A program made the translations under genes and the position numbers. From a virus (lineage: Duplodnaviria > Caudoviricetes), in the IMG/VR virus record IMGVR_UViG_3300022918_000112, positions 1 through 60,112 of that record: DNA of 60,112 nt. One strand, given 5' to 3'. Under the pieces are notes generated by a model that was not told the origin of the DNA, searched no databases, and was given only the letters and a program-made list of their open reading frames with translations. Of the stretch, positions 1,778-60,112 are shown one piece after another (position 1 is the first letter of the stretch; every line of letters begins with the position of its first letter).

Positions 1778-2216
1778 TCAGTAAGCCTTGCCAGTCTTGT
1801 AGAAGTTCTCGAAGCAGAAGTTGGTGGCCTCGATGTAGCCTTCAGCGCCACCGCAGTCAAAACGCTGACCCTTGAACTTGTAGGCAATCACGCAACCGTT
1901 TTTCGCCTGCTTCATCAGGGCGTCGGTGATTTGAATCTCGCCGCCTTTGCCTGGCTCGGTTTGTTTGATCAGCTCGAAAATATCCGGCGTCAGGATGTAA
2001 CGACCGATGATCGCGAGGTTCGACGGTGCGTCTTCCGGGGCTGGTTTTTCGACCATGTTGCGAACGCGGTACAAATCATCAGCGATCAGCTCGCCGGCGA
2101 TCACGCCGTACTTGTTGGTTTCCATCGGATCCACTTCCTGGATCGCAACGATGGTGCAGCGATACTGCTCGTACAGCTTGACCATCTGGGTCAGGACGCC
2201 GTCGCCTTCGAGGTTG
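1778..2216. repeat. Direct repeat with 59674-60112 (galU 3' half)
   Basis: Colinear at offset 57896; about 10 mismatches counted by eye in 439 bp, all in 1778-2089; 2090-2216 identical to 59986-60112. Confidence 0.95.
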
Positions 2217-2617
2217 ACGCACAAGTCGTCCGCCAGCACTACCGCGAACGGTTCGTCACCGATCAGTGGGCGGCCAGTCAGGATCGCGTGCCCCAAGCCT
2301 TTCATTTCGGTCTGACGAGTGTAGGAGAACGAGCACTCGTCCAACAGTTTGCGGATACCGACCAGGTATTTTTCCTTGTCGGTGCCTTTGATCTGGTTTT
2401 CCAACTCGTAGCTGATGTCGAAGTGGTCTTCCAGAGCGCGTTTGCCGCGACCGGTGACGATGGAGATTTCGGTCAACCCAGCGTCCAGTGCTTCTTCGAC
2501 GCCGTACTGGATCAGTGGCTTGTTCACCACCGGCAACATTTCCTTGGGCATGGCCTTGGTCGCTGGGAGGAAGCGCGTGCCGTAACCGGCTGCTGGGAAC
2601 AGGCATTTCTTGATCAT
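1778..2617 (-). CDS. galU: UTP-glucose-1-phosphate uridylyltransferase, left copy
   Basis: PAAGYGTRFLPATKAMPKEMLP signature, VEKP motif, GEIQITDA. Confidence 0.97.
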   Translation of the reverse strand: MIKKCLFPAAGYGTRFLPATKAMPKEMLPVVNKPLIQYGVEEALDAGLTEISIVTGRGKRALEDHFDISYELENQIKGTDKEKYLVGIRKLLDECSFSYTRQTEMKGLGHAILTGRPLIGDEPFAVVLADDLCVNLEGDGVLTQMVKLYEQYRCTIVAIQEVDPMETNKYGVIAGELIADDLYRVRNMVEKPAPEDAPSNLAIIGRYILTPDIFELIKQTEPGKGGEIQITDALMKQAKNGCVIAYKFKGQRFDCGGAEGYIEATNFCFENFYKTGKAY

Positions 2618-2786
2618 GTGAGGCCTTGATTGGGTGATGCATCCATATTTTCGGCGCAGTCTAATCAGGCAGAAGACTTCTTACAACGCCCGACGCTGAC
2701 TAACTGACTGCCTTCATAGAAAAATATTGCCACCGATAGTTGCGAGGCAGCTTGTCACTATTAACAGTTTCCCCTCGCAAGAAGCT

Positions 2787-2881
2787 GCATCGAAGTGTGA
2801 TCTGCCCAAGTAGCCAATGATTTGGCAGATCACACCGCGATGCGGACGAAACCCCGGCTTATACCGGCCAATGCACTCATC
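2787..2881 (+). ncRNA. Structured leader module, copy A (long stem + CGATGCGGACGAAAC + short hairpin)
   Basis: 12-bp perfect stem 2795-2806/2824-2835; 15-nt core identical to 55259-55273. Confidence 0.55.
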
Positions 2882-2981
2882 AACTAACCCAGCGCGGAGG
2901 ATTGGCAGCCATGTAACCGATATCGAAAGCCCGCCAGAAGGCGGCACATGCGTCACGTAGGGAGGTCTTCGTGACGCCAAC

Positions 2982-3009
2982 AAAAGCCCGGTTCCGATCG
3001 GGCTTTTTT
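2982..3009 (+). terminator. Intrinsic terminator in the early leader
   Basis: AAAAGCCCG...CGGGCTTTTTT. Confidence 0.7.
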
Positions 3010-3024
3010 ACGCGTGCCTTTATC

Positions 3025-3080
3025 CGTCAGCACTCTCCCCTGCGCCCAACGGCAACCAGCAGGAGGCCCGAGTGCTGACG
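3025..3080 (+). promoter_or_regulatory. Nested hairpin element, copy A
   Basis: 11-bp outer stem; 19-nt core GCGCCCAACGGCAACCAGC shared with 55783-55830. Confidence 0.55.
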
Positions 3081-3109
3081 AATACACGCAACCCCATCGA
3101 GGAATCGCC

Positions 3110-3391
3110 ATGCACCAACTACTTCAACAGCGAGTCGACGGGGTTGCCGCCCTGCGTGCCCGCGCAAGCATCGCCACCGCCGCTTTCTACGCCTTGATTG
3201 GCAAGGATCAGCCCGTGCAAGAGATTCGCTACCAGGTTCAAACCAAGGGCAACGCCTATCACATCGTTGAGCGCTCCACCGGCCTGACCAAAGGGTTTCG
3301 CTGGACCTGGAAAGAAGCAATCAACTTGGCTCAGGTACTGGAAGCTCGCGCCGACGGCATCAAGCTCTCGCTGTCAGGGGTGCGGAAATGA
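3110..3391 (+). CDS. Phage early hypothetical protein
   Basis: GAGGA RBS, ATG 3110, ATGA-coupled to the next gene. Confidence 0.75.
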   Translation: MHQLLQQRVDGVAALRARASIATAAFYALIGKDQPVQEIRYQVQTKGNAYHIVERSTGLTKGFRWTWKEAINLAQVLEARADGIKLSLSGVRK

Positions 3392-3696
3392 TCGGAGTGC
3401 CAATGCCCGACCCGCGAGACTCGATCGTCGCGAACCTGAAACAGCAGCTGGAGCAATACTTTGGCGCAGGAAAACCGGTGCAGGAAATCGCACCGGGCGT
3501 CAGCGGTGAAAAGGCGGCCATGTTCGGCACCTCTCACAGCAACAAGCTGCGTGTCGAGCGGGACAAGATCGCGCCCAGGCTGAAGGAGCTAGCCGAGGCC
3601 GGCACACCCATTGCCAAGGCCGCGAAAGAGTGTGGCATGGAAGCTAAACGCGCGCGGCTCATCGCTCGGGAAAATGGCTTCAAGTTCACATCATGA
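3388..3696 (+). CDS. Phage early protein with C-terminal HTH-like segment
   Basis: Coupled ORF; TPIAKAAKECGMEAKRARLIA resembles an HTH. Confidence 0.7.
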   Translation: MIGVPMPDPRDSIVANLKQQLEQYFGAGKPVQEIAPGVSGEKAAMFGTSHSNKLRVERDKIAPRLKELAEAGTPIAKAAKECGMEAKRARLIARENGFKFTS

Positions 3697-3887
3697 AGCG
3701 CCTCAGCAACCAGGTGCGCCAGCGCCGACGACAGACATGGCTGGATCTACCGGCCCACGGAATTGAAGAGGCAGGCCATGGCCGAGGAACTGCAGGAGCC
3801 GACGGCGGAAGCCATCAAGCAGCGCAAGAAACGCGAGAAGAAAGCTGCAGACGACGCAACGAAGGGAGTCGGTCGCTTCAAGGTTGA
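3693..3887 (+). CDS. Small basic phage protein
   Basis: ATGA overlap with upstream gene; tail overlaps the next gene. Confidence 0.4.
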   Translation: MKRLSNQVRQRRRQTWLDLPAHGIEEAGHGRGTAGADGGSHQAAQETREESCRRRNEGSRSLQG

Positions 3888-4143
3888 GGTCGCCGGCGTG
3901 TTCATGCCCGACCTCAAGCGCCTGATGAAAGAACATGGCTTCAACAACCAGCAGGAGGTGTATCAGAACCTGCTGCGCAATGTGATCGCCGCCGACTTCG
4001 ATACCGCCGCCCAGATGCTGCGGAGTGTCACGACACCTTATGAACCTAGCGAGAAGGTGTTGCGACAATTGAGGGCAGCCGGGCTGCAGCACTTAGCGAA
4101 ATACCCCAGTGAACAAGATGACGAAATTGTTTACCCCGCATGA
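3778..4143 (+). CDS. Phage hypothetical protein
   Basis: GAGG RBS before ATG 3778, phage-like codon usage. Confidence 0.7.
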   Translation: MAEELQEPTAEAIKQRKKREKKAADDATKGVGRFKVEVAGVFMPDLKRLMKEHGFNNQQEVYQNLLRNVIAADFDTAAQMLRSVTTPYEPSEKVLRQLRAAGLQHLAKYPSEQDDEIVYPA

Positions 4144-4216
4144 CTATCGCGCAACTATTTTTACAGCCTACAAAGAACAACCAAACATAATTGACGCACC
4201 TCCCACATCAATATAA

Positions 4217-4861
4217 TTAGATATTTATCAATCTGCAAAAATTAGTTAGACCAATATCATTTATTATAACCGGCGAAATTGGATCACTAATGCGAGGCAC
4301 CCATATCGCGCGAACCTCAACTTGCATAGAGAATTTTGGCTCCTTAATAATTGCAGGATGCGCCCCCCAGTTCCGACCATTCCAAACTTCACTTCGCTCT
4401 TTATACTGAATCTTTTCGATTGTTAAAAGGCGGACAGGAAAATTAAAGTTCAATGTCTCGGTGAGGCGCTGATAAAATCCATTAACGTCAAATATTTCAA
4501 CGCAAGATTCAGCACCCTCAAATTGCCGCATCACGCGCCTCGAAAATTCAAATGAAGTGCAATGGATAAAGAAATCAGGCACATCAAAGGTCTGACACAA
4601 AGTAAAGTTTTCGACATGAGCGCCACGACCAATCTTGACACCGTTAAATTGCCTTAGTGCTTCTACATGAATACTTCCAGCATCTGAAGTATTTACAATT
4701 GGAATATGATGCTCAACGAACTTCGTACCTTCGGCTGCATCAAATATCCCTTCTTTATGTTCGGTTTTTCTGAAGTCATGCAAGGTGCCGATCCGTACAT
4801 TGCCTAGCGCCAAAAGCGCGTCGTTGTATTTAACAGCTGAATATCTGAAAACTGACGCCAT
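4217..4861 (-). CDS. AT-rich moron, DUF2971/ART-like hypothetical protein
   Basis: AAGGAG RBS; FRY...CTS...KxxxFxxQxExR pattern; opposite strand to the operon. Confidence 0.7.
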   Translation of the reverse strand: MASVFRYSAVKYNDALLALGNVRIGTLHDFRKTEHKEGIFDAAEGTKFVEHHIPIVNTSDAGSIHVEALRQFNGVKIGRGAHVENFTLCQTFDVPDFFIHCTSFEFSRRVMRQFEGAESCVEIFDVNGFYQRLTETLNFNFPVRLLTIEKIQYKERSEVWNGRNWGAHPAIIKEPKFSMQVEVRAIWVPRISDPISPVIINDIGLTNFCRLINI

Positions 4862-4965
4862 AAACGCTCCTTCCGGCTCCATGCCGGGCCGAACACAAAT
4901 ACCCCAACCCAAACCAAATAGCCACCACCGGTCACGGAGGGCGGCGCCTACCTGAGGTATTCGCA

Positions 4966-5973
4966 ATGCCCGTACTCCATAGCGTGATCCACAAGATCGA
5001 CAAAAAGCCCGATGGCCTCCCCGCCGTTCTGTTCCTCGGCGCTGCCGAGCAGGTCGAGAGCCAGGCTCGGGACGATCTAATGAGCCAGCTCAACGAAAGC
5101 TACAACGCCACCGCCGGCAAGGGCTGGGGTTTCTTCCACGCTGAATCTGGCGCGTACCCACTCAGCGGCTGGCTCGCCAAATACCTGGCTGGAGGCTCCG
5201 ACTTCCTCGACTTCAGCGTCACCGCCGTCGAGCATCTGACCAGGCTGATGGAAGAATCGAACCTGACCACCGGCGGGCACGCCCTCTTCTGTCAGTACCA
5301 GCAAGGCCTGACCCAATACCTGGCCATCGCCCTGGTGCAGGAAACGGAAGCGGTGACCATGACCGAAGAGCTGCACCTGATGACGGTCAAGCGCCTGGAC
5401 CTGGACCACATCCGCCTGGCCGCGCGCATCAACCTCAGCGAGTGGAAAAACAACCCACAGTCGCGTCAGTACATCTCGTACCTCAAGGGCAAGCAAGGCC
5501 GCAAGCTCAACGAGTACTTCCGCGATTTCATTGGCGCACAGGAAGGCGTTGACGGCCCGGGCGAAACCCGCACCCTGCTCAAGGCGTTCAGTGACTTCGT
5601 TGAAAGCGAAGATCTTGGCGAGGAGTCAGCCCGCGAGAAGACCAACACCTTGGTCAGCTACGCGATGGCCCAGGCCAAGCTCGGCGAACCGCTTACCCTC
5701 GACGAATTGTCCGAAGTGCTCGACGACGAACAGCCAAAAGCGTTTACCGATTTCATCCGCGACAAGGATTACGGCCTTTCGGCTTCGCTGCCGCCGGACA
5801 AAAAGACCTTGAACAAATTTCGGCGCTTCACCGGCCGAATCGATGGTCTGTCGATCAGCTTCGAGCAGCACCTGCTGGGCTCCAAAGTAGAGTTCGACGA
5901 AGTCGTCGGCACGCTGACGCTGCGCGGTCTGCCAACCCAGCTCACCGATCAACTCAAGCGCGCAAGCACCTGA
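4966..5973 (+). CDS. yejK: Nucleoid-associated protein NdpA/YejK family (phage copy)
   Basis: [10 protein letters not shown] start, [16 protein letters not shown] motifs, 335 aa. Confidence 0.9.
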
Positions 5974-5984
5974 GGTCGCCTAAC

Positions 5985-6170
5985 CTACTGAGCCGAAGGC
6001 TCAGCAAGTCGCTCAATCGCCTTCCTGTAGGTGGCAAGCTCAATGATCTGCCGCAAGCAGATTACGACTTCAAGCTTCTGCTTATCGTCGGGGATCCCTA
6101 TTCGCTTGAGCATCATTTGAGCGTCTTCCTCGATTGCCGCGAGTGCATCGATATCGCTTTGCAGTCTCAT
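5985..6170 (-). CDS. Small helical hypothetical protein
   Basis: GGAGG RBS, 61 aa. Confidence 0.6.
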   Translation of the reverse strand: MRLQSDIDALAAIEEDAQMMLKRIGIPDDKQKLEVVICLRQIIELATYRKAIERLAEPSAQ

Positions 6171-6184
6171 GTCGGCCTCCTACC

Positions 6185-6358
6185 TCAGCCCTTCTTGCCT
6201 GACGGAGCATTGCCTCTGTCGCCGCCCGATGGGTTCGGTGTTGTACTTGGCCAGTTACCACCTGGCCCTGGATGACTCGAAGGCCCGCGTGAACTGCCGG
6301 ATCCTTTGCTTGATCCACCTGAATTGCTTGAGCTTTTACCGCCTCCACTTTTGGACAT
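6185..6358 (-). CDS. Small Gly/Ser/Pro-rich disordered protein
   Basis: AAGGAG RBS before ATG 6358; 57 aa. Confidence 0.6.
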   Translation of the reverse strand: MSKSGGGKSSSNSGGSSKGSGSSRGPSSHPGPGGNWPSTTPNPSGGDRGNAPSGKKG

Positions 6359-6493
6359 GATGATCTCCTTGGTAACGGGAACAGCCCATTGAGAGTAGGT
6401 CATCACGGGCCCACTCATGGCCCACCTGTCCGAATACCCCACTTCAACGAATCACGCCAGCCGGTGAGGCAGGCGCCTGCCTGGAGATTGCCA

Positions 6494-6805
6494 ATGAGCA
6501 TCCCCGTGAACGCTTTGAAAGATGACGAGCTTTTGCACTATGCCGCGCTTGATCCGGGCGCCGCCGCTGAGCTGGCTCGACGATTCGTTGATGGCTCGAT
6601 TGATCCAGGGGCAGAAGTCGAGGGCCTGCGCGACGAGATCCGCATGAACGAAAGCTCTCTCGATGACCAGCATGAACAGATCGAGAACCTGTCGCTGTTT
6701 ATGTCACAGGCTGCCGAAGCCATACGCCGCGCTATGAACCCAGAAACTCCACCGAGCAAGGTTCATGACTTGCTCAAAACAGCACTCAACAAGCTGGAGC
6801 AATGA
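6494..6805 (+). CDS. Phage hypothetical protein
   Basis: GGAG RBS, ATG 6494. Confidence 0.7.
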   Translation: MSIPVNALKDDELLHYAALDPGAAAELARRFVDGSIDPGAEVEGLRDEIRMNESSLDDQHEQIENLSLFMSQAAEAIRRAMNPETPPSKVHDLLKTALNKLEQ

Positions 6806-6806
6806 C

Positions 6807-7169
6807 ATGAGTACTTTTGCCGTATTCGGAATGAATGAGCACTTCGCCCGCGAAGAGGCGAAGCGCAAGGTTCGCGACTTCAAGATCGAAAAGGGTCAGC
6901 GGATTGAACTCTCGATGAGTCAGTGGCTCCAGGCTGTCGAAGATCGCGTGGTCAAGATCATGGACGGCAAGCGGGTCGCCCAACTCAGCAGCATGTTCGA
7001 TGCCCCCCAGTACGCCGCCGATTATGCCGAGCGCATCCAGAAGCTGGGGCGGTGCCGCGACGTAATCATCAGGGCGAAGATCAGGCTGCCGCAGAAGGAC
7101 TTGAGGCGAAAGTCGCCGACCAAGCTTTCTTGGATGGACTACTCGCCAGAATCGATAGCTACCGCATAA
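6807..7169 (+). CDS. Phage hypothetical protein
   Basis: GGAG RBS, ATG 6807 directly after previous stop. Confidence 0.7.
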   Translation: MSTFAVFGMNEHFAREEAKRKVRDFKIEKGQRIELSMSQWLQAVEDRVVKIMDGKRVAQLSSMFDAPQYAADYAERIQKLGRCRDVIIRAKIRLPQKDLRRKSPTKLSWMDYSPESIATA

Positions 7170-7176
7170 TCCGCAC

Positions 7177-8169
7177 TTACTTATTGCGTTGAACACCCGA
7201 TTTTATCAAAGCGTCGTAAATCACTAAAATATCTTCATTATTCCCGTATGCCGTTCTATCCAAAAGTATTAAGTCGCTTTTATCCAGTAGCATCATCCAA
7301 TCCAAATTGTTAAAAATCGCAAACTCATCAACATACTTAATAAATCTACTACCGCGTTCACTCAAGCAATTATAAAACAAAATCACGAGTTCAAAATCAG
7401 ATAAAAATGAACGCGCCACCGTCCCAAATCTTTTCTTTTCCCCATGATCGCACTCCGAGGCGAAACGAAACACAGCATATAGGCTTCGAAAATACAAACT
7501 TAAGTCACCCTGATACTTTGCCCACATTTCGGAATATGCGTAATTCATCTTTCCATCGAGACTAGGAACGTTGTTAATATAGTTTCTCCGCAGGAAGTTT
7601 ACCCAGGTTTTAAAGCAGTCCCTCCCGACCATAGTCACCACGCCTTCTCTTTTAAGGTCAAACCCCTGTACAACGCTGTGCTGAAGCGTCAGCATATTGT
7701 AAAACTGCGACTCAATTTGCTGGTGCATCACCTGCTGCCTTGCTTCAGAAAGATCTTTTCTCTGCAAAAGCAAAGTTATGAGAACGCCTGAAAATGCCAG
7801 CCCAGAGAAAAGAGCATTGAGAGTGCCAAAACTGTCTCCAAAGGTCCCTTCGCGTATTTTTTCAGGGATAGAAATAAATGGTTCATTCCACAACAAAATA
7901 ATTACGAAGGCGCCGTAAGCCAAGACAACTAACGACAGAACAACTATCACCTTGCTATAACTACTAAATTTAATTTCAATTTTTTTAGTAACCTTATAAA
8001 ACACAAATAACCCCAACAACCAAAGTACAAACGCAAAACAATACACCCAAATATTTAACGTTGAAAAAGACCAAAGCCCAAATTGGTACATCACTTCAGA
8101 AATATTAGATTCCACCATTGCAACATTTGAATACTTTAAAGCCTGAGCATCAATGTCAAACCAACTCAT
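7177..8169 (-). CDS. Putative phage abortive infection protein (putAbiC-like, membrane-anchored)
   Basis: N-terminal TM helices, FGDSFGTLNALFSGLAF, QFYNML, GRDCF, YFRSLY, LSxxELxxLFYNCL motifs; very AT-rich. Confidence 0.8.
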   Translation of the reverse strand: MSWFDIDAQALKYSNVAMVESNISEVMYQFGLWSFSTLNIWVYCFAFVLWLLGLFVFYKVTKKIEIKFSSYSKVIVVLSLVVLAYGAFVIILLWNEPFISIPEKIREGTFGDSFGTLNALFSGLAFSGVLITLLLQRKDLSEARQQVMHQQIESQFYNMLTLQHSVVQGFDLKREGVVTMVGRDCFKTWVNFLRRNYINNVPSLDGKMNYAYSEMWAKYQGDLSLYFRSLYAVFRFASECDHGEKKRFGTVARSFLSDFELVILFYNCLSERGSRFIKYVDEFAIFNNLDWMMLLDKSDLILLDRTAYGNNEDILVIYDALIKSGVQRNK

Positions 8170-8396
8170 TTTTAGCTTCCAATTAGGAGGCAGGTGCTAC
8201 CACTGCCGACATGTAAATGACCACTATTACCTCCAATGATACCAATCTGCCAGCCCCCCCACCTCATGAAAATCATCGATATGAGAAGCACATGGCTAAA
8301 TACGGAAACGTCTGTAGCGGCATCGAGTCTTGGTCGGTGTAAGGGCTGTAGCATGAGCCTTCCCTTTTCAGAGAAGGCCCATCGTGTCAGCTCAGT

Positions 8397-8492
8397 TCAT
8401 CGGTCCTTGCCCTGGTCCCAAAGCTGCCTGAGTTCATTGATGAGTCGAAGGATGGCTATGACCAGCCAAACAAGATCTTTAAAGCGTTGCAT
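8397..8492 (-). CDS. 31-aa amphipathic peptide (absent from the ORF track)
   Basis: GAGGA RBS; MQRFKDLVWLVIAILRLINELRQLWDQGKDR; followed by a 13-bp hairpin at 8353-8382. Confidence 0.55.
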   Translation of the reverse strand: MQRFKDLVWLVIAILRLINELRQLWDQGKDR

Positions 8493-8592
8493 ATGCAGAT
8501 CCTCTAGTACTTGGAACTAGGGGATGCACAACACCAATTGATAAACCGCCCCACACTCAACCGCCCGGGCATGACCCGGCATAGGACGCCCC

Positions 8593-8871
8593 ATGCCCAC
8601 AGAAAACAAACCGGCCGATCCATTTGGCCCAATCGGTCGTACCTTCCACATTCATCTGAGCGTGCGCGGCGCGCTGCGGGACTTCAGCAAGCGCCAGCTC
8701 AAAGGCATGTTCCATTTTAAGGGTGGCCGAAAGTGCACCGCCGACGAGGCGAAGGATCATCTACTTGAGGCTTTGGCCAAAGGTAAAGAGGTTCTGCCTT
8801 TCGGGCCGCCGTGCGAAGGCTTCGACTTTGCAGGTAATGGTTGCCCTGGCCACGACACGGAGGCCGCATGA
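8593..8871 (+). CDS. Phage hypothetical protein
   Basis: AGGA RBS after a short hairpin; ends EAA with ATGA overlap. Confidence 0.7.
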   Translation: MPTENKPADPFGPIGRTFHIHLSVRGALRDFSKRQLKGMFHFKGGRKCTADEAKDHLLEALAKGKEVLPFGPPCEGFDFAGNGCPGHDTEAA

Positions 8872-8905
8872 AGCGCATCTACCTCAGCGGCCCGATGACC
8901 GGCCC
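8868..8905 (+). pseudogene. N-terminal stub of a DUF4406-like gene
   Basis: MKRIYLSGPMTG start, then abrupt switch to AT-rich unrelated sequence. Confidence 0.6.
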
Positions 8906-8962
8906 GCCAGAACACCACTGGAGATACGCCTCCCCAGACCAACGAACTCTACGCCAAAAATT

Positions 8963-9556
8963 TCACGTTTTAGGCTGTTTTAAAAGCCATGGAAATGTCT
9001 GTTCTAGACTACTAAATAGTTTTGCCTTCGTTTTACGGAGCTCGCGATAATAATCAAGGCAGCGCTGAGGAGGTTTTTCGCTATCTAATTGCGAGTCAAC
9101 CCCATCAATCAAAGTAGTGCCGGGGCCCATTCGGAGTGCCTTTTGTGCATTATTTATGAGCTCCACGTTATCTTTAGCTCCCTGCATCGAACATGCCCCG
9201 ATGGCTTTTTTAACCAGCACCCTTTCAGAATCGTCTAGCTCGGCGGGGTCGTTATCAAGATCGATTAGCTTTTGTAAAAAAGCTACCTGAGCTTTAGTCT
9301 CCTCAGAATTTAAAGCATGACTAGTGGAAAATGCGTCGCTTACGGATAGAAATGTAAAAACAATAGAAACTAAAGGAGGCAAGTAAGAGCGAGGCTCTGT
9401 CCAGTCTTCCCAAAACACTACAGACGCGGCAGCAGCTAGACCGGCAACAATAAATCCAGCAAACGCCCAATAATGTTCGCCATGAAATGCAACTCCTGCC
9501 AACACCACACCTATTACTAGCGAAATGAAGCCTACTACCAAGCGCCAACTTTCCAT
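8963..9556 (-). CDS. Membrane protein moron (3 N-terminal TM helices)
   Basis: Hydrophobic N-half, AT-rich, counter-oriented. Confidence 0.7.
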   Translation of the reverse strand: MESWRLVVGFISLVIGVVLAGVAFHGEHYWAFAGFIVAGLAAAASVVFWEDWTEPRSYLPPLVSIVFTFLSVSDAFSTSHALNSEETKAQVAFLQKLIDLDNDPAELDDSERVLVKKAIGACSMQGAKDNVELINNAQKALRMGPGTTLIDGVDSQLDSEKPPQRCLDYYRELRKTKAKLFSSLEQTFPWLLKQPKT

Positions 9557-9669
9557 TTATGCTGAACCTTCGTGAGTTTAAGGTTGCTCAGTATAATCAA
9601 TTAGTTAATTCCCCCCAACCAAGATCAATCATTTTCCTACCCAGCCGTTATAGCGGCAAGGACGAAGTC

Positions 9670-9996
9670 ATGCCTGAAGAAATCAAATTGATCCAACCGG
9701 CGACGGTTGTGCGCGACGAAATGGGTTCGTTTCAGCATCCCGATATGCCTGACTTCGACGAGGGCGACGGTGACAAGTGCAAAGCCTGGGTAGCGGAACA
9801 GGGTTTGAAGGTGGCGATGGTGAGCCTTGAGTACGCAGACGAAGCCGTTGCAGATCGCTACTTTGAAGCCGGCGATCCCGACTTCAGCTATTGGGAGCCT
9901 GATCGCCCTGAAGGTGAGGATTGGTTCTGCCTGGCGATTCACGACACCGACGACGGCCCTGTGTGCTGGTGGGCTCGCCGCGAGGTGACGCCATGA
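9670..9996 (+). CDS. Acidic phage hypothetical protein
   Basis: AAGGA RBS; WFCLAIHDTDDGPVCWW. Confidence 0.75.
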   Translation: MPEEIKLIQPATVVRDEMGSFQHPDMPDFDEGDGDKCKAWVAEQGLKVAMVSLEYADEAVADRYFEAGDPDFSYWEPDRPEGEDWFCLAIHDTDDGPVCWWARREVTP

Positions 9997-10229
9997 ACGA
10001 AGCACAGCAACTGATAGCAACGCTGGAAATGGAATCTGAAGAGCGAGCGGTCGCCGCTGAGAAGTTTGTCCGTGATACCGGTCGCGCTTCAATTTCAGCA
10101 CTGCAGCGAAACTTCCGGATCGGATACGGCAGTGCCTGCCGGCTGATGGATGAACTGGTAAAGCGGAAGGTCGTGTCGCAGATCGACCAAGAAGGCCGGC
10201 GCACGATACTTGAAAAGGTGACGCCATGA
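9993..10229 (+). CDS. Stand-alone FtsK gamma-domain (winged helix) protein
   Basis: ASISALQRNFRIGYGSACRLMDEL matches the FtsK-gamma pattern ASISxxQRxxRIGYNRAARLxxx. Confidence 0.8.
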   Translation: MNEAQQLIATLEMESEERAVAAEKFVRDTGRASISALQRNFRIGYGSACRLMDELVKRKVVSQIDQEGRRTILEKVTP

Positions 10230-10287
10230 TCCTGCTCACAGCGCCAGCCCTCCCCTGCATGGCCTGGCTCGTCTACTCGGGGCCGCG

Positions 10288-10602
10288 GTGATGAGAAGTG
10301 TTCGCCGATTCGTAGATGATCCATCAGCCGAATACGGTTTCCGCTCGGTGCCAGCGACCTATGAGGACGCCGAGATTATCACCGGCTTCCGACTGGATCG
10401 TCGCGTCAACTACTCGATCAGTGTCGAAGGGGAAGTTGAGCAGGAAAGCTGGTGCACCCTGGATTGCTCCGGATGCAGCTGTGGTTGCGAAGGTGGCTGC
10501 GGATGCGGGCCTTCCGCTGGATGCAGCGAGTGTGGGTACACCGGCAAACGACGGCATCACTTCGGCTTCCCGCCATCTCCGCCAGACCGCAAGAAACCCT
10601 AA
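10288..10602 (+). CDS. Cys-rich phage protein
   Basis: CSGC...GCSECGYTGK zinc-binding-like motif. Confidence 0.65.
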   Translation: MMRSVRRFVDDPSAEYGFRSVPATYEDAEIITGFRLDRRVNYSISVEGEVEQESWCTLDCSGCSCGCEGGCGCGPSAGCSECGYTGKRRHHFGFPPSPPDRKKP

Positions 10603-10653
10603 CCCCCTCTTCCACCTACCAGCCTGCCGGTGAACGGCGGGCGAGGAATTCCT

Positions 10654-10983
10654 ATGACCAAAGATCAGCTCCCATCGCTGGCAGCGGCTGTCGCACGCGC
10701 AATTGATGCCGGCAAGGCCGCCGCTGAGGCCGCGCCAGATGATGGCGGTAGCGCCAACCTCGACCGCGTTTACGTCTGCGTGGGCCTGCTCCGCGAAAGC
10801 ACCTTGGATAAGGCTGGCATTACAGGCTGGATGCAGGCGGCCACCACCTACCACTCCCGCGCGTTTCATCTCAGCGCCCCATTCGCTGGCCAAGGCAACC
10901 GGCGTTATGCCGGCGTGCAGGCCATGTACAAATCACTGAAGGCTGAAGGCGTCGAGTGTGGCGTCTGGTACCAGATGGATTAA
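10654..10983 (+). CDS. Phage hypothetical protein
   Basis: GAGGA RBS, ATG 10654. Confidence 0.7.
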   Translation: MTKDQLPSLAAAVARAIDAGKAAAEAAPDDGGSANLDRVYVCVGLLRESTLDKAGITGWMQAATTYHSRAFHLSAPFAGQGNRRYAGVQAMYKSLKAEGVECGVWYQMD

Positions 10984-11030
10984 CCACCCCTCCCCACCTT
11001 CTGCCGCCACGCGCGGCATGGAGCACCCCT

Positions 11031-11273
11031 ATGGAAAATGAAATTCTCTCGGACGAAGAGCTGGCAGACCTCACCGGCTACAAGGCCAGGGCCTACCAGC
11101 GACGCTGGCTGGTTGATCGCCAATGGGTTTTCGTCGAAAGCCGTGGCAAGCGGCCTCTAGTTGGCCGGATGTATGCCCGTATGAAACTGGGCATGATCTC
11201 CCCCGCCATCGCTGACCCCAACCCACCGCCGGCAGCTCCGGCATGGACGCCAGACTTCTCGCGAGTGAACTGA
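11031..11273 (+). CDS. Excisionase-like protein (DUF4224 type)
   Basis: LSDEELADLTGYK...QRRWL; immediately upstream of integrase. Confidence 0.8.
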   Translation: MENEILSDEELADLTGYKARAYQRRWLVDRQWVFVESRGKRPLVGRMYARMKLGMISPAIADPNPPPAAPAWTPDFSRVN

Positions 11274-11274
11274 T

Positions 11275-12324
11275 ATGCGACCCCGCAAGGCCGAAACACG
11301 TAATTTGCCGCCCCGGATGTACCAGTGGACGCGGCCACGGAAAAGTGGAAAGGACTGGATTGCCTATTACTACTTGGACATGACCGGCAAGGCGATCCCA
11401 TTGGGCAAAGACCTGGACCTCGCCAGGATCAAATGGGCAGAACTCGAAGCCAAGGAAAAACCTCTCGACCTGCGCACCATGAAGGGAATTTTTGACAGGT
11501 ACATCCGCGACATCGTGTCCAAGAAAGCGCCGCGCACCCAAAAGGACAATCTGTCGGAGATCAAGCAGCTGCGGCCGATGTTCGACAGCGCCCCCATTGA
11601 CTCGATCACCCCGGCCACGATTGCCGGGTACCGGGATGCACGGACGGCAAAGGTTCGGGCGAATCGTGAGATTGCCACCCTTTCCCACGTGTTCAACATT
11701 GCTCGGGAATGGGGGCTGACAACCAAAGAAAATCCCTGCCAAGGCGTTCGCAAAAACAAGGAAACGCCGCGGGACTATTACGCAAATGACGTGGTTTGGG
11801 ATGCTGTTTACAAGAAGGCAGCTCAAGAGCTGAAAGATGCGATGGACCTGGCCTATCTGACCGGGCAACGGCCGGCAGACGTGCTGATTATGCGGAAGGA
11901 TGATGCAGAAGGAGGATACCTGGGGGTGCTACAGAACAAGACGCACAAAAAGCTGCGGATTCAGATGACCGCCGGAGGCGAGGCAAACAGCCTAGGACGA
12001 TTGATCGCGGAAATAACGGCGCGCAATGCTCAGCACCTATCCAACTACCTGATTGTGAGTCGGCACGGTAAAAGGATGACCGCGACGATGCTGAGAAAGC
12101 GGTGGGACATTGCGCGCGAGAAAGCAAAGTTGGCCGCGATCGAGATCGGCGACGAGCTGCTGGCGACAAAAATCGGTGGATTCCAGTTCCGTGATATCAG
12201 GCCAAAAGCTGCTTCTGAAATCCTCGACATTGGGGAAGCGAGCTTGCTTCTGGGTCACACCAAAGGCGACATCACGGAACGCGTTTACCGCCGCATCGGC
12301 GCCATTGCCAAGCCGTCAAAATAG
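11275..12324 (+). CDS. int: Tyrosine integrase
   Basis: TGQR, QNKT, FRDIR, LLGH, VY catalytic residues; frame intact. Confidence 0.93.
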   Translation: MRPRKAETRNLPPRMYQWTRPRKSGKDWIAYYYLDMTGKAIPLGKDLDLARIKWAELEAKEKPLDLRTMKGIFDRYIRDIVSKKAPRTQKDNLSEIKQLRPMFDSAPIDSITPATIAGYRDARTAKVRANREIATLSHVFNIAREWGLTTKENPCQGVRKNKETPRDYYANDVVWDAVYKKAAQELKDAMDLAYLTGQRPADVLIMRKDDAEGGYLGVLQNKTHKKLRIQMTAGGEANSLGRLIAEITARNAQHLSNYLIVSRHGKRMTATMLRKRWDIAREKAKLAAIEIGDELLATKIGGFQFRDIRPKAASEILDIGEASLLLGHTKGDITERVYRRIGAIAKPSK

Positions 12325-12447
12325 CCCGAAAACCCGTTACAAAACTCAAACTCCGCCCCTTGTAGAATGCGGTTTACAGAGGTGCCGAAAAACAAAAGTA
12401 CTGTAACGAAAAACAGCTACGGGCCACGGTTTCAGCGGCTTTAAATA

Positions 12448-12508
12448 GCGGTCTTGAAAACCGTCGACTGTAACAGGTCCATGAGTTCGAATCCCATCGC
12501 CTCCGCCA
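12448..12508 (+). tRNA. 3' fragment of tRNA-Ser(UGA), att core; not a complete gene
   Basis: GCGGT-CTTGAAA-ACCGT anticodon arm, long variable arm, GTTCGAATC, ends GCCA; 5' acceptor strand and D arm absent. Confidence 0.85.
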
Positions 12509-12515
12509 TCTTTAT

Positions 12516-12551
12516 ACGACAAAGCCCTGATTTTTCAGGGCTTTGTCGTTT
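12516..12551 (+). terminator. Terminator after the tRNA fragment
   Basis: ACGACAAAGCCCTGA/TCAGGGCTTTGTCGT inverted repeat. Confidence 0.8.
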
Positions 12552-12712
12552 CTGGGGTTTGAGATTTCCGCCGGGATTTTTGAGGCGTTACAAAACTATT
12601 TGGTAACCGTTACAAAACTTTCCGGTTTTTCCCATCCTGCGGCGCCCTGCCGATCCTTAAATATCCTTCATGTAACGCGATGCTACGCTGTCCTCAAAAC
12701 CGAGGATTTGCG

Positions 12713-12922
12713 ATGCCACATTCAGACCTGCTCCCTTCCCTGCTATTCAAAATCAACGAAAACCAGCTCGCCCTTGAGGCCGCCATCCTGGAGCTTTCCA
12801 ACTGGGTCGAGGCCCGCGGCTCGGATGACGTCGCAGACAACGTGCGCGGCGCATTGGACACCATCGACAAGAACGAGGAGTTCATCAAGATGACGCTTGC
12901 GGTGATGATGACGCCGGAGTGA
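12713..12922 (+). CDS. Small helical protein typical of Pseudomonas prophage ends
   Basis: GAGGA RBS; MPHSDLLPSLLFKINENQLALEAAI. Confidence 0.75.
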   Translation: MPHSDLLPSLLFKINENQLALEAAILELSNWVEARGSDDVADNVRGALDTIDKNEEFIKMTLAVMMTPE

Positions 12923-12975
12923 GGTCCGGACTGATGTGCACTTTGGCCACAAACAACGCAAATGAGGATTTACAA

Positions 12976-13974
12976 TTAAATCGATGCGCGATCAATAATC
13001 TCACCATCAACGTTCTTGCGTATCAACTCGCCAGATGCGAACTCAGCAAGAAACGCTTCGTAAGGCGCATTGGGTATAGGGGCGTGGAATGGCATTTGGC
13101 CGCTTCGGGCATTAGCTGTCAATTCTCGAAGTGTTTCCGCGTGCCAGCACTTACCTAACGCTACTTCGCCCAGCCGCGTACTGCCGATTGTGCCCGAGTA
13201 CACTCCCAAGAATTTGAAACTTTTCACGGTTTCATGGGTAAGTGCTTGAGTATCAAGTCCCATCAGCGCATCCAGCGCACCAATGGTTCCGCCGAGCATT
13301 TGCTCGAACACCTCATTGTTCGCCTTATTTCCTGCACCAACCCGCTTGTCGTCTTGCGCGATCAGCACTGGCGCACCAGACATCCCGGCTCGGGACAACG
13401 AGTCAATAAGCAACACTCGTCCACCAAGCCGCAAGGCCGGTTCTGTTGCGATACTGCCTCTCTTCCAAACAGGTAGGTAGTAGGGTGCATCGTTGCCAAA
13501 GGTCCCAGTCATGTCCTCCCGGCTGAAGGGGTAGCCGAGAATGAACACATCCTTAGCCACCGTTTCATTGATATGCGTATCATTTTCAACTGAATGAATA
13601 TCTACAAACTCAAAGTGGTTTTCGAGAGTCATCGGCAAGGGATAAATCACGATGTCAACGTCCCCGCCTGCAGGATGTTCTTCCCACAACGGTTCCATCG
13701 CGGCGTTGTAAAGTGGAAGGGTTAGCTCAATCAGACTTTTACTTTTGCTTAACACCGTGACTTTGAGTAGGTGCGGTGGCGGATTTGATCCCATGACAGA
13801 CGGAGTAGCAGGGTCAAGGCCCGTGACAACGTGCCAGTTCGTCACCAACAACAATGACTGGCTAGCACGAATAAAGAAGCCCGTCGCATAAGAGCGTTGT
13901 ATGTGCTGACCTGTCTCAGGGTGAATAAAGTAGGTTTGTATGTAAGTAGTGGCGCGCGACAGCTGATGGATCAC
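12976..13974 (-). CDS. Trypsin-like serine protease moron
   Basis: ATGFF, TNWHV, DVDI, GYP, GMSGAPV triad motifs; GGAG RBS before GTG 13974. Confidence 0.8.
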   Translation of the reverse strand: MIHQLSRATTYIQTYFIHPETGQHIQRSYATGFFIRASQSLLLVTNWHVVTGLDPATPSVMGSNPPPHLLKVTVLSKSKSLIELTLPLYNAAMEPLWEEHPAGGDVDIVIYPLPMTLENHFEFVDIHSVENDTHINETVAKDVFILGYPFSREDMTGTFGNDAPYYLPVWKRGSIATEPALRLGGRVLLIDSLSRAGMSGAPVLIAQDDKRVGAGNKANNEVFEQMLGGTIGALDALMGLDTQALTHETVKSFKFLGVYSGTIGSTRLGEVALGKCWHAETLRELTANARSGQMPFHAPIPNAPYEAFLAEFASGELIRKNVDGEIIDRASI

Positions 13975-14072
13975 AATACACTCCAGATACAAAATATCGG
14001 CCGGTGCATAGATGATAGCGGTACTGCTGCAACAATCCTCGTCATTTCGTATCGACCTTGCCGCAGCTAAAT

Positions 14073-18180: not shown

Positions 18181-18183
18181 GGT

Positions 18184-48561: not shown

Positions 48562-48582
48562 GAAACCCCCTCTATGGCCTTC

Positions 48583-48786: not shown

Positions 48787-48821
48787 AGGTTCACTTCCGC
48801 TTTCGGTGTGACTGGGCAGGG

Positions 48822-49037
48822 TTAGGCGGCGGTTTTACGAGTTGGCTGATGGCGAGAACAGAGCTCGCGAGCGGTGATTTCACCGCCTGTAAGCTCCTCC
48901 GCCTTGAATGCCTTCTCTGCGCTCATCAAGCAAATGCCAGACACCCAGTACGAAACCGCAGCTTGAGATACGCCGAGAGCCAGAGCTGTTTTGGTTTGCC
49001 CGCCGAAGTGGTCGACGAGCCTTTCGATGGGGGTCAT
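48822..49037 (-). CDS. cro: Cro-like repressor
   Basis: GGQTKTALALGVSQAAVSYW HTH; divergent from cI. Confidence 0.88.
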   Translation of the reverse strand: MTPIERLVDHFGGQTKTALALGVSQAAVSYWVSGICLMSAEKAFKAEELTGGEITARELCSRHQPTRKTAA

Positions 49038-49052
49038 TTGAGACTCCTCCTG

Positions 49053-49113
49053 ATAAGCCTGCTTATATCCTAAGTAGAAGGACACTTATTTGCAAGCCGA
49101 TAAGGGAACTTAT
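49053..49113. promoter_or_regulatory. OR-like operators (three ATAAG-N4-CTTAT sites)
   Basis: 49053-49066, 49076-49089 (1 mismatch), 49100-49113. Confidence 0.8.
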
Positions 49114-49125
49114 AAATTCCAGCGG

Positions 49126-49782
49126 ATGAGCACACTCGCCGAAAGAATCAAATCCGCACGAATTCACGCCAAGCTGACGCAGAAGGCTCTCGCTCTTAAG
49201 GCGGGGGTTGAGCAGCCGGTGATCTCGCAGTTGGAAACTGGAAAGAACCTACAAAGCGCGCACCTGCCGAAAATTGCGCATGCGTGCGGCGTGAGCGCCA
49301 TTTGGCTATCCGAGAATATTGGTCAGATGATCAATTCAGCGGCGGCCGAGTCGAACGTGGGCGAATCCCGTCAGCCCGTTGAGTCCTACCGCTACCCGGT
49401 AATCAGCTGGGTAGCCGCCGGCGCCTGGGCTGAGGCCGTGGAGCCCTACCCGGCCGGCTTCTCGGATCGCTATGAGTTTTCCGAGTACGACTCAAAAGGT
49501 GCCGCGTTTTGGCTTGAGGTCAAAGGCGACTCGATGACTTCACCGGTTGGGCAAAGCATTACCGAAGGGACTCTAATTCTGGTAGACACGGAAGCAGAGG
49601 CTGCTCCCGGGAAGCTAGTTATCGCCAAGCTGCCGGATAGCAACGAAGCGACCTTCAAGAAGCTGGTAAATGACGGCGGCAAGCTATTCCTGAAGCCGTT
49701 AAACCCGTCATGGCGAATTGAGCCTTTCACCGAAGACTGCCGAATCGTAGGGGTTGTGGTTCGGGCGCTTCAGAAGTTTTAA
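49126..49782 (+). CDS. cI: CI-like repressor (HTH + S24 autopeptidase)
   Basis: N-terminal HTH, VAAG cleavage site, GDSM, TFKKL. Confidence 0.93.
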   Translation: MSTLAERIKSARIHAKLTQKALALKAGVEQPVISQLETGKNLQSAHLPKIAHACGVSAIWLSENIGQMINSAAAESNVGESRQPVESYRYPVISWVAAGAWAEAVEPYPAGFSDRYEFSEYDSKGAAFWLEVKGDSMTSPVGQSITEGTLILVDTEAEAAPGKLVIAKLPDSNEATFKKLVNDGGKLFLKPLNPSWRIEPFTEDCRIVGVVVRALQKF

Positions 49783-50246: not shown

Positions 50247-50403
50247 CTGCTTATGCTGCCGGATCGTCGGCGTTGTGGTTTGGGTACTTCAGAAGTTTTA
50301 AGCCAGCAAATCACGATCCTGAATTACGTGTTTTGGCGCGAAGAGTGATTGCGCACAGAGCCGATGAAAACCGCCCCCTTGAAAACGAAGGAAAGGAACT
50401 CCG

Positions 50404-55782: not shown

Positions 55783-55830
55783 TGCACTCCCCTCCGCGCC
55801 CAACGGCAACCAGCGGAACGGATGAGTGCA
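55783..55830 (+). promoter_or_regulatory. Nested hairpin element, copy B
   Basis: TGCACTC/GAGTGCA outer stem, TCCGC/GCGGA inner stem, same 19-nt core as 3025-3080. Confidence 0.55.
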
Positions 55831-55873
55831 GCCGAGTTTTGTTGGATCAACACCCGCCACTCTGGAGGCGACC

Positions 55874-57826: not shown

Positions 57827-57879
57827 CCACCCTTTCCATCTAAAGGCCGAACCACTCCTTGTCGGCCACGGAGAGCGCA

Positions 57880-58869
57880 ATGACTGATTCAGACACCCAA
57901 GCACCAACCGGCCTCGCCACGTACCACGATCCATCCCACAACGCGGCGGCGCTCATTCTCGACCCAGGCACCATGAAGTCGATGAGCGACCTTGCTCTGA
58001 TGATGTCGAAGGGCGCGACAACAGTCCCCAAGCATCTGAAGGGCAATCAAGCCGACTGCATGGCGGTAGTGCTACAAGCAATGCAGTGGCAGATGAACCC
58101 TTTCGCTGTCGCGCAGAAGACGTTCATCGTCAACGGCGGTGCATTGAGCTATGAGGCGCAGCTCGTCAACGCAGTGATCACCGCCAAGGCACCGGTCAAG
58201 GGTCGCTTGAACTTCGAGTGGTTCGGCAGCTGGGAAAACGTCATCGGGAAGATGCGTGAAGTTACCAGCAAAACCAAGAAGGACGAGGACACTGGCGAGT
58301 TCAAAAAGTACCGTGTTCCCGGCTGGAGCTTTGACGATGAGAAGGGTCTCGGGATTAAAGTTTGGGCAACCTTCAAAGGCGAAGACGAGCCACGCGTTCT
58401 GGAGCTACTGCTCACCCAGGTCCGCACGCGGAACTCTACGCTTTGGGCGGAAGACCCCAAGCAGCAGATTGCATACCTGGTGACCAAAAAATGGGCTCGA
58501 CTCTTCTGCCCTGACGTCATCCTCGGCGTCTATACACCCGATGAGTTCGAAGACTCGTACGGCGGCGAAATCGATATCACCCCTGCGAAGCAGGCTTCAA
58601 ACACCGCTGCCGCTGCTGGTGTGTCGTTCGGCCCGAAATCCCCATCGCCGGAAATCGACGGAGTATTCGCAGACCTTCTGGTCGTCGCGAAGCGGCAGGA
58701 CATCGAAGCCTATGCGACAGCCTGGGCAGGTCTCAAGCCTAAGCAGCGCGCAGCGATCGGCCTGGAATGCCACGAAGCACTCAAGAACATGGCTGCAACC
58801 GTTGATGGCGACTTTACCGAAATGACCGGCAATAACGACGGCCTGTCTCAGGCCGAGGAAGCGGCGTAG
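57880..58869 (+). CDS. RecT-family ssDNA annealing protein
   Basis: VPKHL.G..ADC, MNPFAVAQKT, YEAQLVNAVI, ILGVYTPDE. Confidence 0.85.
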   Translation: MTDSDTQAPTGLATYHDPSHNAAALILDPGTMKSMSDLALMMSKGATTVPKHLKGNQADCMAVVLQAMQWQMNPFAVAQKTFIVNGGALSYEAQLVNAVITAKAPVKGRLNFEWFGSWENVIGKMREVTSKTKKDEDTGEFKKYRVPGWSFDDEKGLGIKVWATFKGEDEPRVLELLLTQVRTRNSTLWAEDPKQQIAYLVTKKWARLFCPDVILGVYTPDEFEDSYGGEIDITPAKQASNTAAAAGVSFGPKSPSPEIDGVFADLLVVAKRQDIEAYATAWAGLKPKQRAAIGLECHEALKNMAATVDGDFTEMTGNNDGLSQAEEAA

Positions 58870-59531
58870 TGAGAACGGAACTTCAGGGCACTGAAAAGTG
58901 GCATGCAGACCGATCTGGCCGTGTGACAGCCAGCCGGTTTAAAGACGTGATGGCCTGGGGCAAGCCTGACAAAAATGGGAAGCGCGAGCCTATGGGTGCG
59001 CGCACCTCATACATGCGCGAACTGTGCTTCGAGCGACTGGCAAAGAAGTCCAAGCACAACGTCAGCAGTGCTTCCATGAAGTGGGGTCACACCGAAGAAC
59101 AGAAGGCTCAGGACGCCTACGAGATGCTGACCGGCAACATCGTCATACCGTCAGAGTTCATCGTCCACCCGAAGTACGACTGGCTCGGCTGCTCGCCAGA
59201 CGGCCTGATCAACGATGACGGGGGCACCGAGTCGAAGTGCCCCTTCAATGAGGCGATTCACGTCAGGACATGGCTCGAAGGCATGCCCGAGGAACACATG
59301 CCGCAGGTCCAGGGCTGCTTGTTCGTAACGGGGCGGAAATGGTGGGACTTTCTGTCGTTCGATTCTCGCCAGGATGAGGAGTGTCAGCTCTACATCGAGA
59401 CGATTCACCGCGACGAAGACTACATCGCCAACCTGCACAAAGAGCTGGTCCAGTTCAACCTGGAACTGAATCGCATGGTTGATGAGGTCGCGGACAAAGC
59501 TCGCGCGCAAGCCTATCGGTTAGGCGCGTGA
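58869..59531 (+). CDS. YqaJ / lambda-exonuclease family protein
   Basis: QGTEKW..R.G.VTAS, CSPDGL, ESKCP, QVQG. Confidence 0.9.
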   Translation: MRTELQGTEKWHADRSGRVTASRFKDVMAWGKPDKNGKREPMGARTSYMRELCFERLAKKSKHNVSSASMKWGHTEEQKAQDAYEMLTGNIVIPSEFIVHPKYDWLGCSPDGLINDDGGTESKCPFNEAIHVRTWLEGMPEEHMPQVQGCLFVTGRKWWDFLSFDSRQDEECQLYIETIHRDEDYIANLHKELVQFNLELNRMVDEVADKARAQAYRLGA

Positions 59532-59621
59532 TAGTGAACAGGTTCGATATCCTCAAGCCAACGCTGGTCTCCGCCAAGGGTACCGACAGGCAATCGAAGC
59601 GCTCCTACGCTGAACGCACAT

Positions 59622-59650
59622 AAAAAAAGCCACCTGCGTAGGTGGCTTTT
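59622..59650. terminator. Terminator homologous to the galU terminator at 1730
   Basis: AAAAGCCACC-TGCGTA-GGTGGCTTTT; same stem, different loop. Confidence 0.8.
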
Positions 59651-59673
59651 CAATACAAGAAGCTCAGGTTCTA

Positions 59674-60112
59674 TCAGTAGGCCTTGCCAGTCTTGTAGAA
59701 GTGTTCGAAGCAGAAGTTGGTGGCCTCGATGTAGCCTTCAGCGCCACCGCAGTCAAAACGCTGGCCCTTGAACTTGTAGGCAATCACGCAACCGTTTTTC
59801 GCCTGCTTCATCAGGGCGTCGGTGATTTGAATCTCACCGCCTTTGCCTGGCTCGGTTTGTTTGATCAGCTCGAAAATATCCGGCGTCAGGATGTAACGGC
59901 CGATGATCGCCAGGTTCGACGGGGCATCTTCCGGGGCTGGTTTTTCGACCATGTTGCGAACGCGGTACAAATCATCAGCGATCAACTCGCCGGCGATCAC
60001 GCCGTACTTGTTGGTTTCCATCGGATCCACTTCCTGGATCGCAACGATGGTGCAGCGATACTGCTCGTACAGCTTGACCATCTGGGTCAGGACGCCGTCG
60101 CCTTCGAGGTTG
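59674..60112 (-). CDS. galU: galU, right copy (3' part; continues beyond the window)
   Basis: Protein identical to the left copy over the visible part except N->H near the C-terminus. Confidence 0.95.
   Translation of the reverse strand, partial: NLEGDGVLTQMVKLYEQYRCTIVAIQEVDPMETNKYGVIAGELIADDLYRVRNMVEKPAPEDAPSNLAIIGRYILTPDIFELIKQTEPGKGGEIQITDALMKQAKNGCVIAYKFKGQRFDCGGAEGYIEATNFCFEHFYKTGKAY

Follow-up and report, generated by a model that had tools for sequence, protein, structure and literature searches.

The stretch of DNA analyzed here (the window, 60,112 bases) is the IMG/VR virus record IMGVR_UViG_3300022918_000112, a single metagenome contig for which the record gives nothing further of the assembly. 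Its first 2741 bases resemble a Pseudomonas chromosome, the closest locus being L001 (93.5% identity over 2741 bases; the genome holding it is called G001), and contain gor and a full-length galU, the product of which scores 399.5 bits with the TIGR01099 profile, above the curated equivalog cut-off of 326.8. The chromosomal homology ends at about position 2741 and is followed by the DNA of a lambdoid phage, up to the stop codon of a YqaJ-type exonuclease gene (exo) at 59531. A second galU copy begins at 59624, 92 bases past this stop codon, and matches positions 136-261 of the TIGR01099 profile before it is truncated by the contig end; its 5′ part and the sequence beyond lie outside the record. 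A preliminary description of the window took this arrangement for a prophage that had entered the chromosome by homologous recombination between galU genes, with its own attP left unused. We consider it likely, instead, that the contig represents a free circular Pseudomonas phage with its own galU, which was joined by the assembler to a short host piece via galU.

The galU direct repeat noted on the two sides of the phage is indeed present, the left stretch 1741-2216 corresponding to the right stretch 59637-60112 at an offset of 57,896. The roughly ten differences in the 3′ 312 bp, followed by 127 identical bases, are likewise found as described. The coding part, 1778-2089, has 10 mismatches (at 1784, 1807, 1808, 1868, 1940, 2003, 2015, 2027, 2030, and 2089), and the 3′ flank, 1741-1777, has 7 further ones. 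The 10 differences in the coding sequence result in 1 amino-acid change, a pattern that points to purifying selection on the galU cargo. The last mismatch is located at 2089/59985, and the identity that begins straight after it extends over exactly 127 bases up to the contig end, such that 59986-60112 is the same 127-mer as 2090-2216. These bases had been proposed to map the crossover, which does not hold, since a single crossover swaps the flanks of the two copies but does not equalize the copies themselves. The largest k of SPAdes and metaSPAdes is 127, and a graph edge that meets a junction vertex ends with the k-mer of that vertex. The 127-base identity is thus what an assembly vertex yields by construction, and the contig has the form of a path that is closed into a circle by a k-mer.

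According to this reading, the window would be a rho-shaped walk through a de Bruijn graph, consisting of a tail (1-2089), a cycle (2090-59985, 57,896 bp), and the entry 127-mer again. The cycle would correspond to the genome, circular or in concatemers, of a lambdoid temperate phage of Pseudomonas that is complete and retains an intact attP. Its galU, predicted to be functional and host-derived and equipped with a terminator of its own and a diverged upstream part, would lie in antisense orientation within the recT-exo ... xis-int operon. The tail would be a low-coverage fragment of a co-occurring Pseudomonas chromosome, carrying gor and the 3′ part of its own galU. The assembler would enter the cycle from the host tail through an identical stretch of at most 201 bp, complete one round, and stop at the entry 127-mer. 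The 3′ differences between the two alleles are less than 77 bases apart, and the host 3′ path would therefore be separate at k ≥77 and survive as a dead-end tail. The 5′ differences (2291/2296, 2404, and ~2525) are 107-120 bases apart and would form bubbles at k ≤99, popped towards the deeper phage allele. Positions 2089 and 2291 are 203 bp apart, too far for any 127-mer to span both. With k = 127, a strain with ~9x base coverage would have only ~1.4x k-mer coverage over ~260 positions, and the host exit branch would almost certainly break and be clipped. The tail and the cycle would remain, with the observed contig as the only walk. The contig itself contains 2.1 kb of host DNA and 57.9 kb of contiguous phage DNA. 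The graph argument is built on the usual behavior of SPAdes and on assumed reads of 150 nt; the literature search on assembly chimeras (supplements not covered) returned general papers only.

An integrated prophage would have host DNA on both sides and the same depth as the chromosome. In the window, host homology is confined to 1-2741, on the left. The depth was evaluated in X1, a leaf-litter metagenome run that is the probable source of the window, as it contains 0.95 of the sampled 31-mers of window 1-10000, every other holder of these words having at most 0.25 of them. This share, together with the virus record being of one contig, shows that the window is a short-read metagenome contig rather than a finished chromosome. 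Depths and alleles of the runs were taken from Logan contigs (k=31). In X1, contigs with zero differences cover 2495-20000 at depths of 13.4-23.8 and break only inside the att core, a sequence in common with host tRNA genes. One of them, spanning 2495-4901 with zero differences and a depth of 20.1, bridges the galU/phage junction at 2741. The intact galU is thus genuine phage cargo, contiguous with phage DNA at phage depth, and this contig supports the circular, galU-carrying phage genome that the preliminary description had postulated.

The window-type host tail in X1 is ~6-8 deep. Place 1265 gives 6.01, and the other values follow from subtraction, i.e., 10.5 - 3.41 at places 160-241, 52.8 - 46.7 at place 994, 11.4 - 3.25 at place 1324, and 51.9 - 43.7 at place 1345, other Pseudomonas strains reaching 43-47 at places 994 and 1345. 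The depth of the phage is accordingly about three times that of the window-type host tail, the figures being contig means and approximate, and integration fails the test that had been set for it beforehand, namely that the phage should not be deeper than the chromosome.

A second leaf-litter sample, X11, possibly from the same campaign as X1, contains 83-489 (depth 11.3) and 1985-2200 (depth 13.4) without difference, and A1868 at a depth of ~13. The phage bins of X11 are at 0-2, except for three at 10.2-11.4 with conserved or tRNA sequence. Coverage gaps in X2, X4, and X11 are not counted as absence, the exception being the phage bins of X11, which are supported by the allele counts. Of the letters that the window has further upstream in galU, C2291 accounts for ~2.5 of 33.7, A2296 for 0 of 31.7, and A2404 for 0 of 102.5. 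The presence of the host alleles in X11, without the phage and with native 5′ letters, indicates that the host strain occurs phage-free with a native galU. Taken together, the alleles of X1 and X11 show that the left galU is host-type as far as position 2200 or beyond and has become phage-type by position 2291, and the earlier view of the left copy as a host/phage hybrid is confirmed by them and by the site-by-site comparison given below. Consensus strings of loose contig ends in the runs were also considered as the host flank on the right, and turned out to be the galU of other strains or to have no match to the loci compared.

We have also considered a Campbell-type integration, in which a galU-bearing circle would cross over with the chromosomal galU within 2090-2290, via RecA or RecT/YqaJ, in part of the population. 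The product would be gor-galU(H3′/P5′)-phage-galU(P3′/H5′)-host, with H and P denoting host-type and phage-type, and free or replicating copies would account for the surplus phage depth. The hybrid composition of the left copy is exactly that predicted by this model, the repeat through which the host tail joins the phage is so short that read pairs could phase it, and the phage allele, near-identical to the host in its center and diverged at both edges, fits a past exchange. Furthermore, RecT and YqaJ are encoded beside galU, and an excerpt of one report describes Rad52-like, RecT-type phage recombinases as working without RecA and as tolerant of divergence (PMC3945230). However, no host DNA follows the right copy, the contig stopping on the 127-mer instead, and the depth ratio in X1 implies that most phage genomes are not joined to the host tail. 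The phage-free host alleles of X11, with their native 5′ part, also speak against this model. Moreover, the intact attP and an attB-like tRNA-Ser in the nearest genome mean that the integrase route should dominate.

Neither junction of the proposed integrant was found elsewhere. The exact pattern of the exo/galU 3′ junction has 0 occurrences in viral contigs and 0 in metagenome contigs, and the same holds for the galU-upstream/phage junction (0 and 0), the window's own record possibly being excluded in both cases. In 401 Pseudomonas genomes, no match spanning exo and galU is among the matches listed, and such a match would outscore the best of them; those listed are confined either to galU (query 245-421) or to exo (query 1-162). 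Four of these genomes are flagged as unpublished (G374, G371, G152, and G100), and no result depends on them. The literature search (supplements not covered) returned nothing on point for integrase-independent or homologous integration of prophages. We therefore regard the Campbell-type integration as improbable. The same low probability is assigned to the wider picture in which a leaf-litter Pseudomonas subpopulation carries the phage in galU by homology, with repeated insertion and excision having homogenized the center of the allele. If that picture were true, galU, the main phage-resistance locus of Pseudomonas linked to lipopolysaccharide (LPS), would be both cargo and an integrase-independent second attachment site.

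The assembly-graph join is preferred because of the depth ratio, the phage-free host in X11, and the intact attP with an attB-like site in the nearest genome, as well as the short host tail and the low prior probability that a phage would insert by homology while its integrase route is available. Integration through galU homology is not demonstrated by the window. A number of points weigh against our preference. A real integration in part of the population gives the same graph, with about equal likelihoods, and the contig being non-discriminating in this respect, the verdict leans on priors and depth. Read pairs could phase a stretch of at most 201 bp, and if they were used, the join of the host tail to the phage would be evidence for real hybrids. 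A Logan depth is one mean 31-mer figure per contig, with strains summed, and not a copy number, and the depth of the host tail in X1 was obtained by subtraction at 5 groups of sites. Finally, the X1 contigs carry only non-window letters at 1868, 2291, and 2296, and X1 may thus not be the sole source, or the letters of the window may be minority variants dropped by the contigs.

The relatives of the phage provide information about the genome underlying the contig. In the window, recT and exo lie at the right end and the other early genes at the left, on the same strand, which was originally seen as an early operon cut in two. This observation stands. Among the related viral loci found via the exonuclease, 80/80 match the exo tail and 0/80 match galU or gor, and in the 8 best of them recT-exo is followed by same-strand blocks that match window 3680-12561, the sole exception being one displaced block in L146. 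The distance from exo to int in the related loci is 8.2-9.0 kb, which matches that of the window once galU is subtracted. Judged by these alignments, the two halves of the early operon adjoin each other in the normal genomes of the phage group, and galU, on a circular genome, would be an extra antisense insert of ~1.1 kb between exo and the early genes. A megablast comparison of the early regions with GenBank phages gave just patchy matches of 75-80% (PseuP_222 and PseuP_224).

The same gene order bears on a further possibility, namely that the window holds two adjacent elements, an island at 2742-~12560 with its own integrase and a phage at 12560-59531, and that a single 57.9-kb phage does not exist. 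The integrase and attP do lie between these blocks. In the related contigs, however, recT-exo is directly followed by NA37, xis-int, and attP on one strand within the distance given above, and the arrangement recT-exo ... xis-int-attP is the order known from lambda. It is very unlikely that the blocks are separate elements.

A 52-nt element occurs twice with 79% identity, at 3030-3081, just past the galU insert, and at 55784-55835, ~3.7 kb upstream of exo, with a weaker third copy at 27294-27345. In 28/80 related loci this element is the only match to 2742-3400 and is found at the position equivalent to 55784. It may be a regulatory or recombination motif at the edge of the inserted block.

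The integration functions of the phage were also inspected. The PF00589 integrase gene adjoins an attP core, which places the phage among the tyrosine-integrase phages with a tRNA attachment site. The core matches tRNA-Ser(UGA) and its terminator in G001 at 106/111 positions, with the 60 tRNA bases exact, and ARAGORN calls no whole tRNA in the window. Phage DNA is present on both sides of the core. The earlier statement that int and attP are internal to the phage is thus correct, while the layout given for them needs revision, int being the gene at 11275-12324 and the gene at 12976-14106 encoding a trypsin-like peptidase. The latter gene closes the late region immediately next to attP, where morons are typically found.

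These positions are relevant for two other origins of the galU repeat, an integrase-mediated insertion into galU of the icd type (as in phage 21 and e14), where the phage supplies a replacement 3′ end for its target gene, and a lambda-dgal-type transducing genome from aberrant excision. Both would agree with the galU 3′ part adjoining phage DNA at the right end and with the copies differing mainly in this part. An icd-type event should, however, leave only a 3′ fragment on the gor side, where the copy is full length and followed by 124 bp of upstream sequence, and the integrase lies ~9 kb inside, with an attP that is a fragment of tRNA-Ser and not of galU. A dgal-type genome should have host DNA directly at att, in place of phage genes. 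In the window, galU is ~9.5 kb away from attP, with int, xis, and early genes in between, and galU and tRNA-Ser are located on different contigs of G001 (C20 and C66, respectively). Either origin would be very surprising.

The features of the window are collected in Table 1. The phage genes were identified by Pfam and PHROG scans.

Table 1. Coordinates of the features in the window (60,112 bases)
Feature	Position	Strand	Basis or remark
gor, glutathione-disulfide reductase, host tail	289-1653	-	NF004776, 675.6 bits
Host-type galU 3′ flank and terminator	1728-1777	-	96% to L001, only 82% to right copy
galU, left full-length copy, hybrid	1778-2617	-	TIGR01099; X1/X11 alleles, site table
Segment common to host-type and phage-type galU (≤201 bp)	2090-2290		Includes 127-mer 2090-2216
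Diverged phage-type galU 5′ end and 124 bp upstream	2525-2741	-	Joined to phage DNA on a phage-depth contig of X1
Early-left region past galU, otherwise PHROG-only genes	2742-10893	+	Colinear with related phages downstream of exo
NA37 nucleoid-associated protein	4966-5973	+	Early-left region
putAbiC-like gene	7177-8169	-	PF16872, E = 2.2e-15
DUF4224 protein, probably excisionase (xis-like)	10956-11273	+	PF13986, E = 1e-10
Tyrosine integrase (int)	11275-12324	+	PF00589, E = 5.4e-10, plus Int_N
attP core: 3′ 60 nt of tRNA-Ser(UGA) and terminator, uninterrupted	12449-12558	+	Match to G001
Trypsin-like peptidase	12976-14106	-	PF13365; phrog_7688
Late and replication block	15033-47588	-	Pfam/PHROG
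Endolysin	15033-15455	-	
J-like tail protein	18184-21747	-	
Tape measure	27017-30031	-	
Major head protein	33768-34745	-	
Portal	37907-39367	-	
TerL	39367-40857	-	
TerS	40859-41467	-	
DnaC-like	45929-46735	-	
O-like	46725-47588	-	
Immunity region	47760-49782		cII-like and cI-like
cII-like	47760-48236	-	
cI-like repressor	49090-49782	+	
RecT	57859-58869	+	Pfam
YqaJ exonuclease (exo)	58869-59531	+	Pfam; homology to 80/80 related loci stops near 59541
Right galU: phage-type 3′ flank and 3′ 438 nt of coding sequence	59624-60112	-	Closing 127-mer = 59986-60112

The full set of lambdoid modules is present, i.e., cI/cII immunity, O/P-like replication, RecT/exo, xis/int/attP, terminase, portal, head, tape measure, J-like tail, and endolysin, and the gene order is colinear with that of related viral contigs, as in a lambdoid temperate siphovirus. 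The early region also contains two antisense genes with a low GC content at third codon positions (GC3), at 7177-8169 (-) with GC3 0.43 and at 4217-4966 (-) with GC3 0.40, which are probably prophage-borne defense cargo. A 46-nt direct repeat (49737-49782 and 50256-50301, 87% identity, 519 bp spacing) is found just past the cI-like gene.

The galU of the phage is a mosaic. The left copy is 0.96-0.97 identical to L001 in each sub-region of 1690-2524, 0.90 over 2525-2617, and 0.75 over the 124 bp upstream (2618-2741), where it has private differences at 24/124 sites, compared to 1-3/122 in L001-L006. When the phage allele is compared with the host allele, L001 serving as a proxy for the unseen 5′ part of the latter, the two are 18% different in the 3′ flank, 3.2% different over the next 312 bp, and identical over the next ≤201 bp, after which they differ at ≥3 sites in 2291-2524, by ~10% in the 5′ end of the coding sequence (2525-2617), and by ~25% upstream (2618-2741). 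From this pattern we infer that the phage galU is an old cargo gene, the center of which was renewed by recombination with host alleles. The mosaicism with the local host allele points to an ongoing exchange between phage and host at galU.

A galU of this kind is also found in an unrelated viral contig, L174 (IMG/VR, 54,258 b), which encodes a full GalU at 8001-8837 (398.1 bits with TIGR01099). Its homology to the host is limited to the coding sequence (91.6% to L007), and the gene lies antisense amid the phage early genes of the early-left operon, with a CI-like repressor 3.4 kb away, a DnaB-like helicase nearby, and PHROG matches for 8/10 neighboring open reading frames. Temperate Pseudomonas phages hence carry an intact galU as cargo of the early-left operon in two unrelated lineages. 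GenBank phages include 26 records with a GalU-like gene, all below 60% identity and 0/26 from a Pseudomonas phage; several of the 26 are short, unannotated records that may be host fragments. The literature search (supplements not covered) returned nothing on point for phage-encoded galU in Pseudomonas.

Some Pseudomonas genomes have a galU without an adjoining gor, at L171 (G262:C23), L172 (G315:C1), and L173 (G017:C13), and the galU 3′ flank of these loci matches the right copy of the window 14-23 nt further than ordinary chromosomal copies do. Two galU 3′ matches apiece are found in G262, G315, and G384. The gor-less loci (G262, G315, and G017) show no clearly greater similarity to the phage-type flanks, and their neighbors look chromosomal.

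GalU produces UDP-glucose for the LPS core. In P. aeruginosa, the loss of galU removes the LPS receptor and leads to phage resistance, and supplying galU restores sensitivity, as stated in an excerpt of a published study (PMC9603268). One may speculate that a prophage-borne galU could buffer or restore LPS synthesis in lysogens. The phage galU also supplies ~1 kb of homologous sequence through which exchange with the chromosome can take place. The galU cargo of temperate Pseudomonas phages is a modest but real result, and its exchange with the host allele is testable in isolates. Integration, if true, would be a natural case of integrase-independent lysogeny, a claim that the evidence does not carry. 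The record illustrates, in addition, how viral catalogues can come to list a phage carrying a host gene as a host-flanked prophage.

It is instructive to compare the window with known systems. Circular phage and plasmid contigs from de Bruijn assemblies repeat a k-mer at their ends, i.e., they have a terminal overlap of k bases. The window is similar in that its last 127 bases equal an earlier 127-mer and in that 57,896 bp is a plausible size for a complete lambdoid genome, but the partner of the repeat lies at 2090 instead of at base 1, behind a 2.1-kb host tail, which gives the rho shape. With the partner placed inside, the circularity would escape standard checks for terminal repeats, and the record would be taken for a host-flanked prophage. 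Joins of this kind would come to light if the terminal k-mer were also looked for in the interior of the contig.

The icd-type attachment of phage 21 and e14, which duplicates a 3′ gene end, resembles the window in that a housekeeping gene has its 3′ end repeated next to phage DNA, with scattered differences. In the window, by contrast, the copy on the gor side is a complete gene, the integrase lies at a distance, and attP is a tRNA-Ser fragment elsewhere. The gal and bio transducing phages of lambda, P1 via IS1, and phi3T with thyP3 can enter the chromosome by homology with the host DNA that they carry. Like these, the phage of the window carries a segment of ~1 kb that shares 97-100% identity with a chromosomal gene, and this homology together with RecA or RecT could give a Campbell-type insertion with hybrid copies. 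It is unlike them in that galU is not beside att and replaces nothing, and in that the depth argues for mostly free genomes.

There is also a likeness to the morons and auxiliary metabolic genes of phages, the galU of the window being intact, provided with its own terminator, and placed antisense in a non-essential early region. UTP-glucose-1-phosphate uridylyltransferases are annotated in Bacillus phage SP-15, Listeria phage LIS04, and Acinetobacter phages. In contrast to these proteins, which are less than 60% identical, the copy of the window is 96-97% identical to the local host gene at the nucleotide level, and it is a mosaic.

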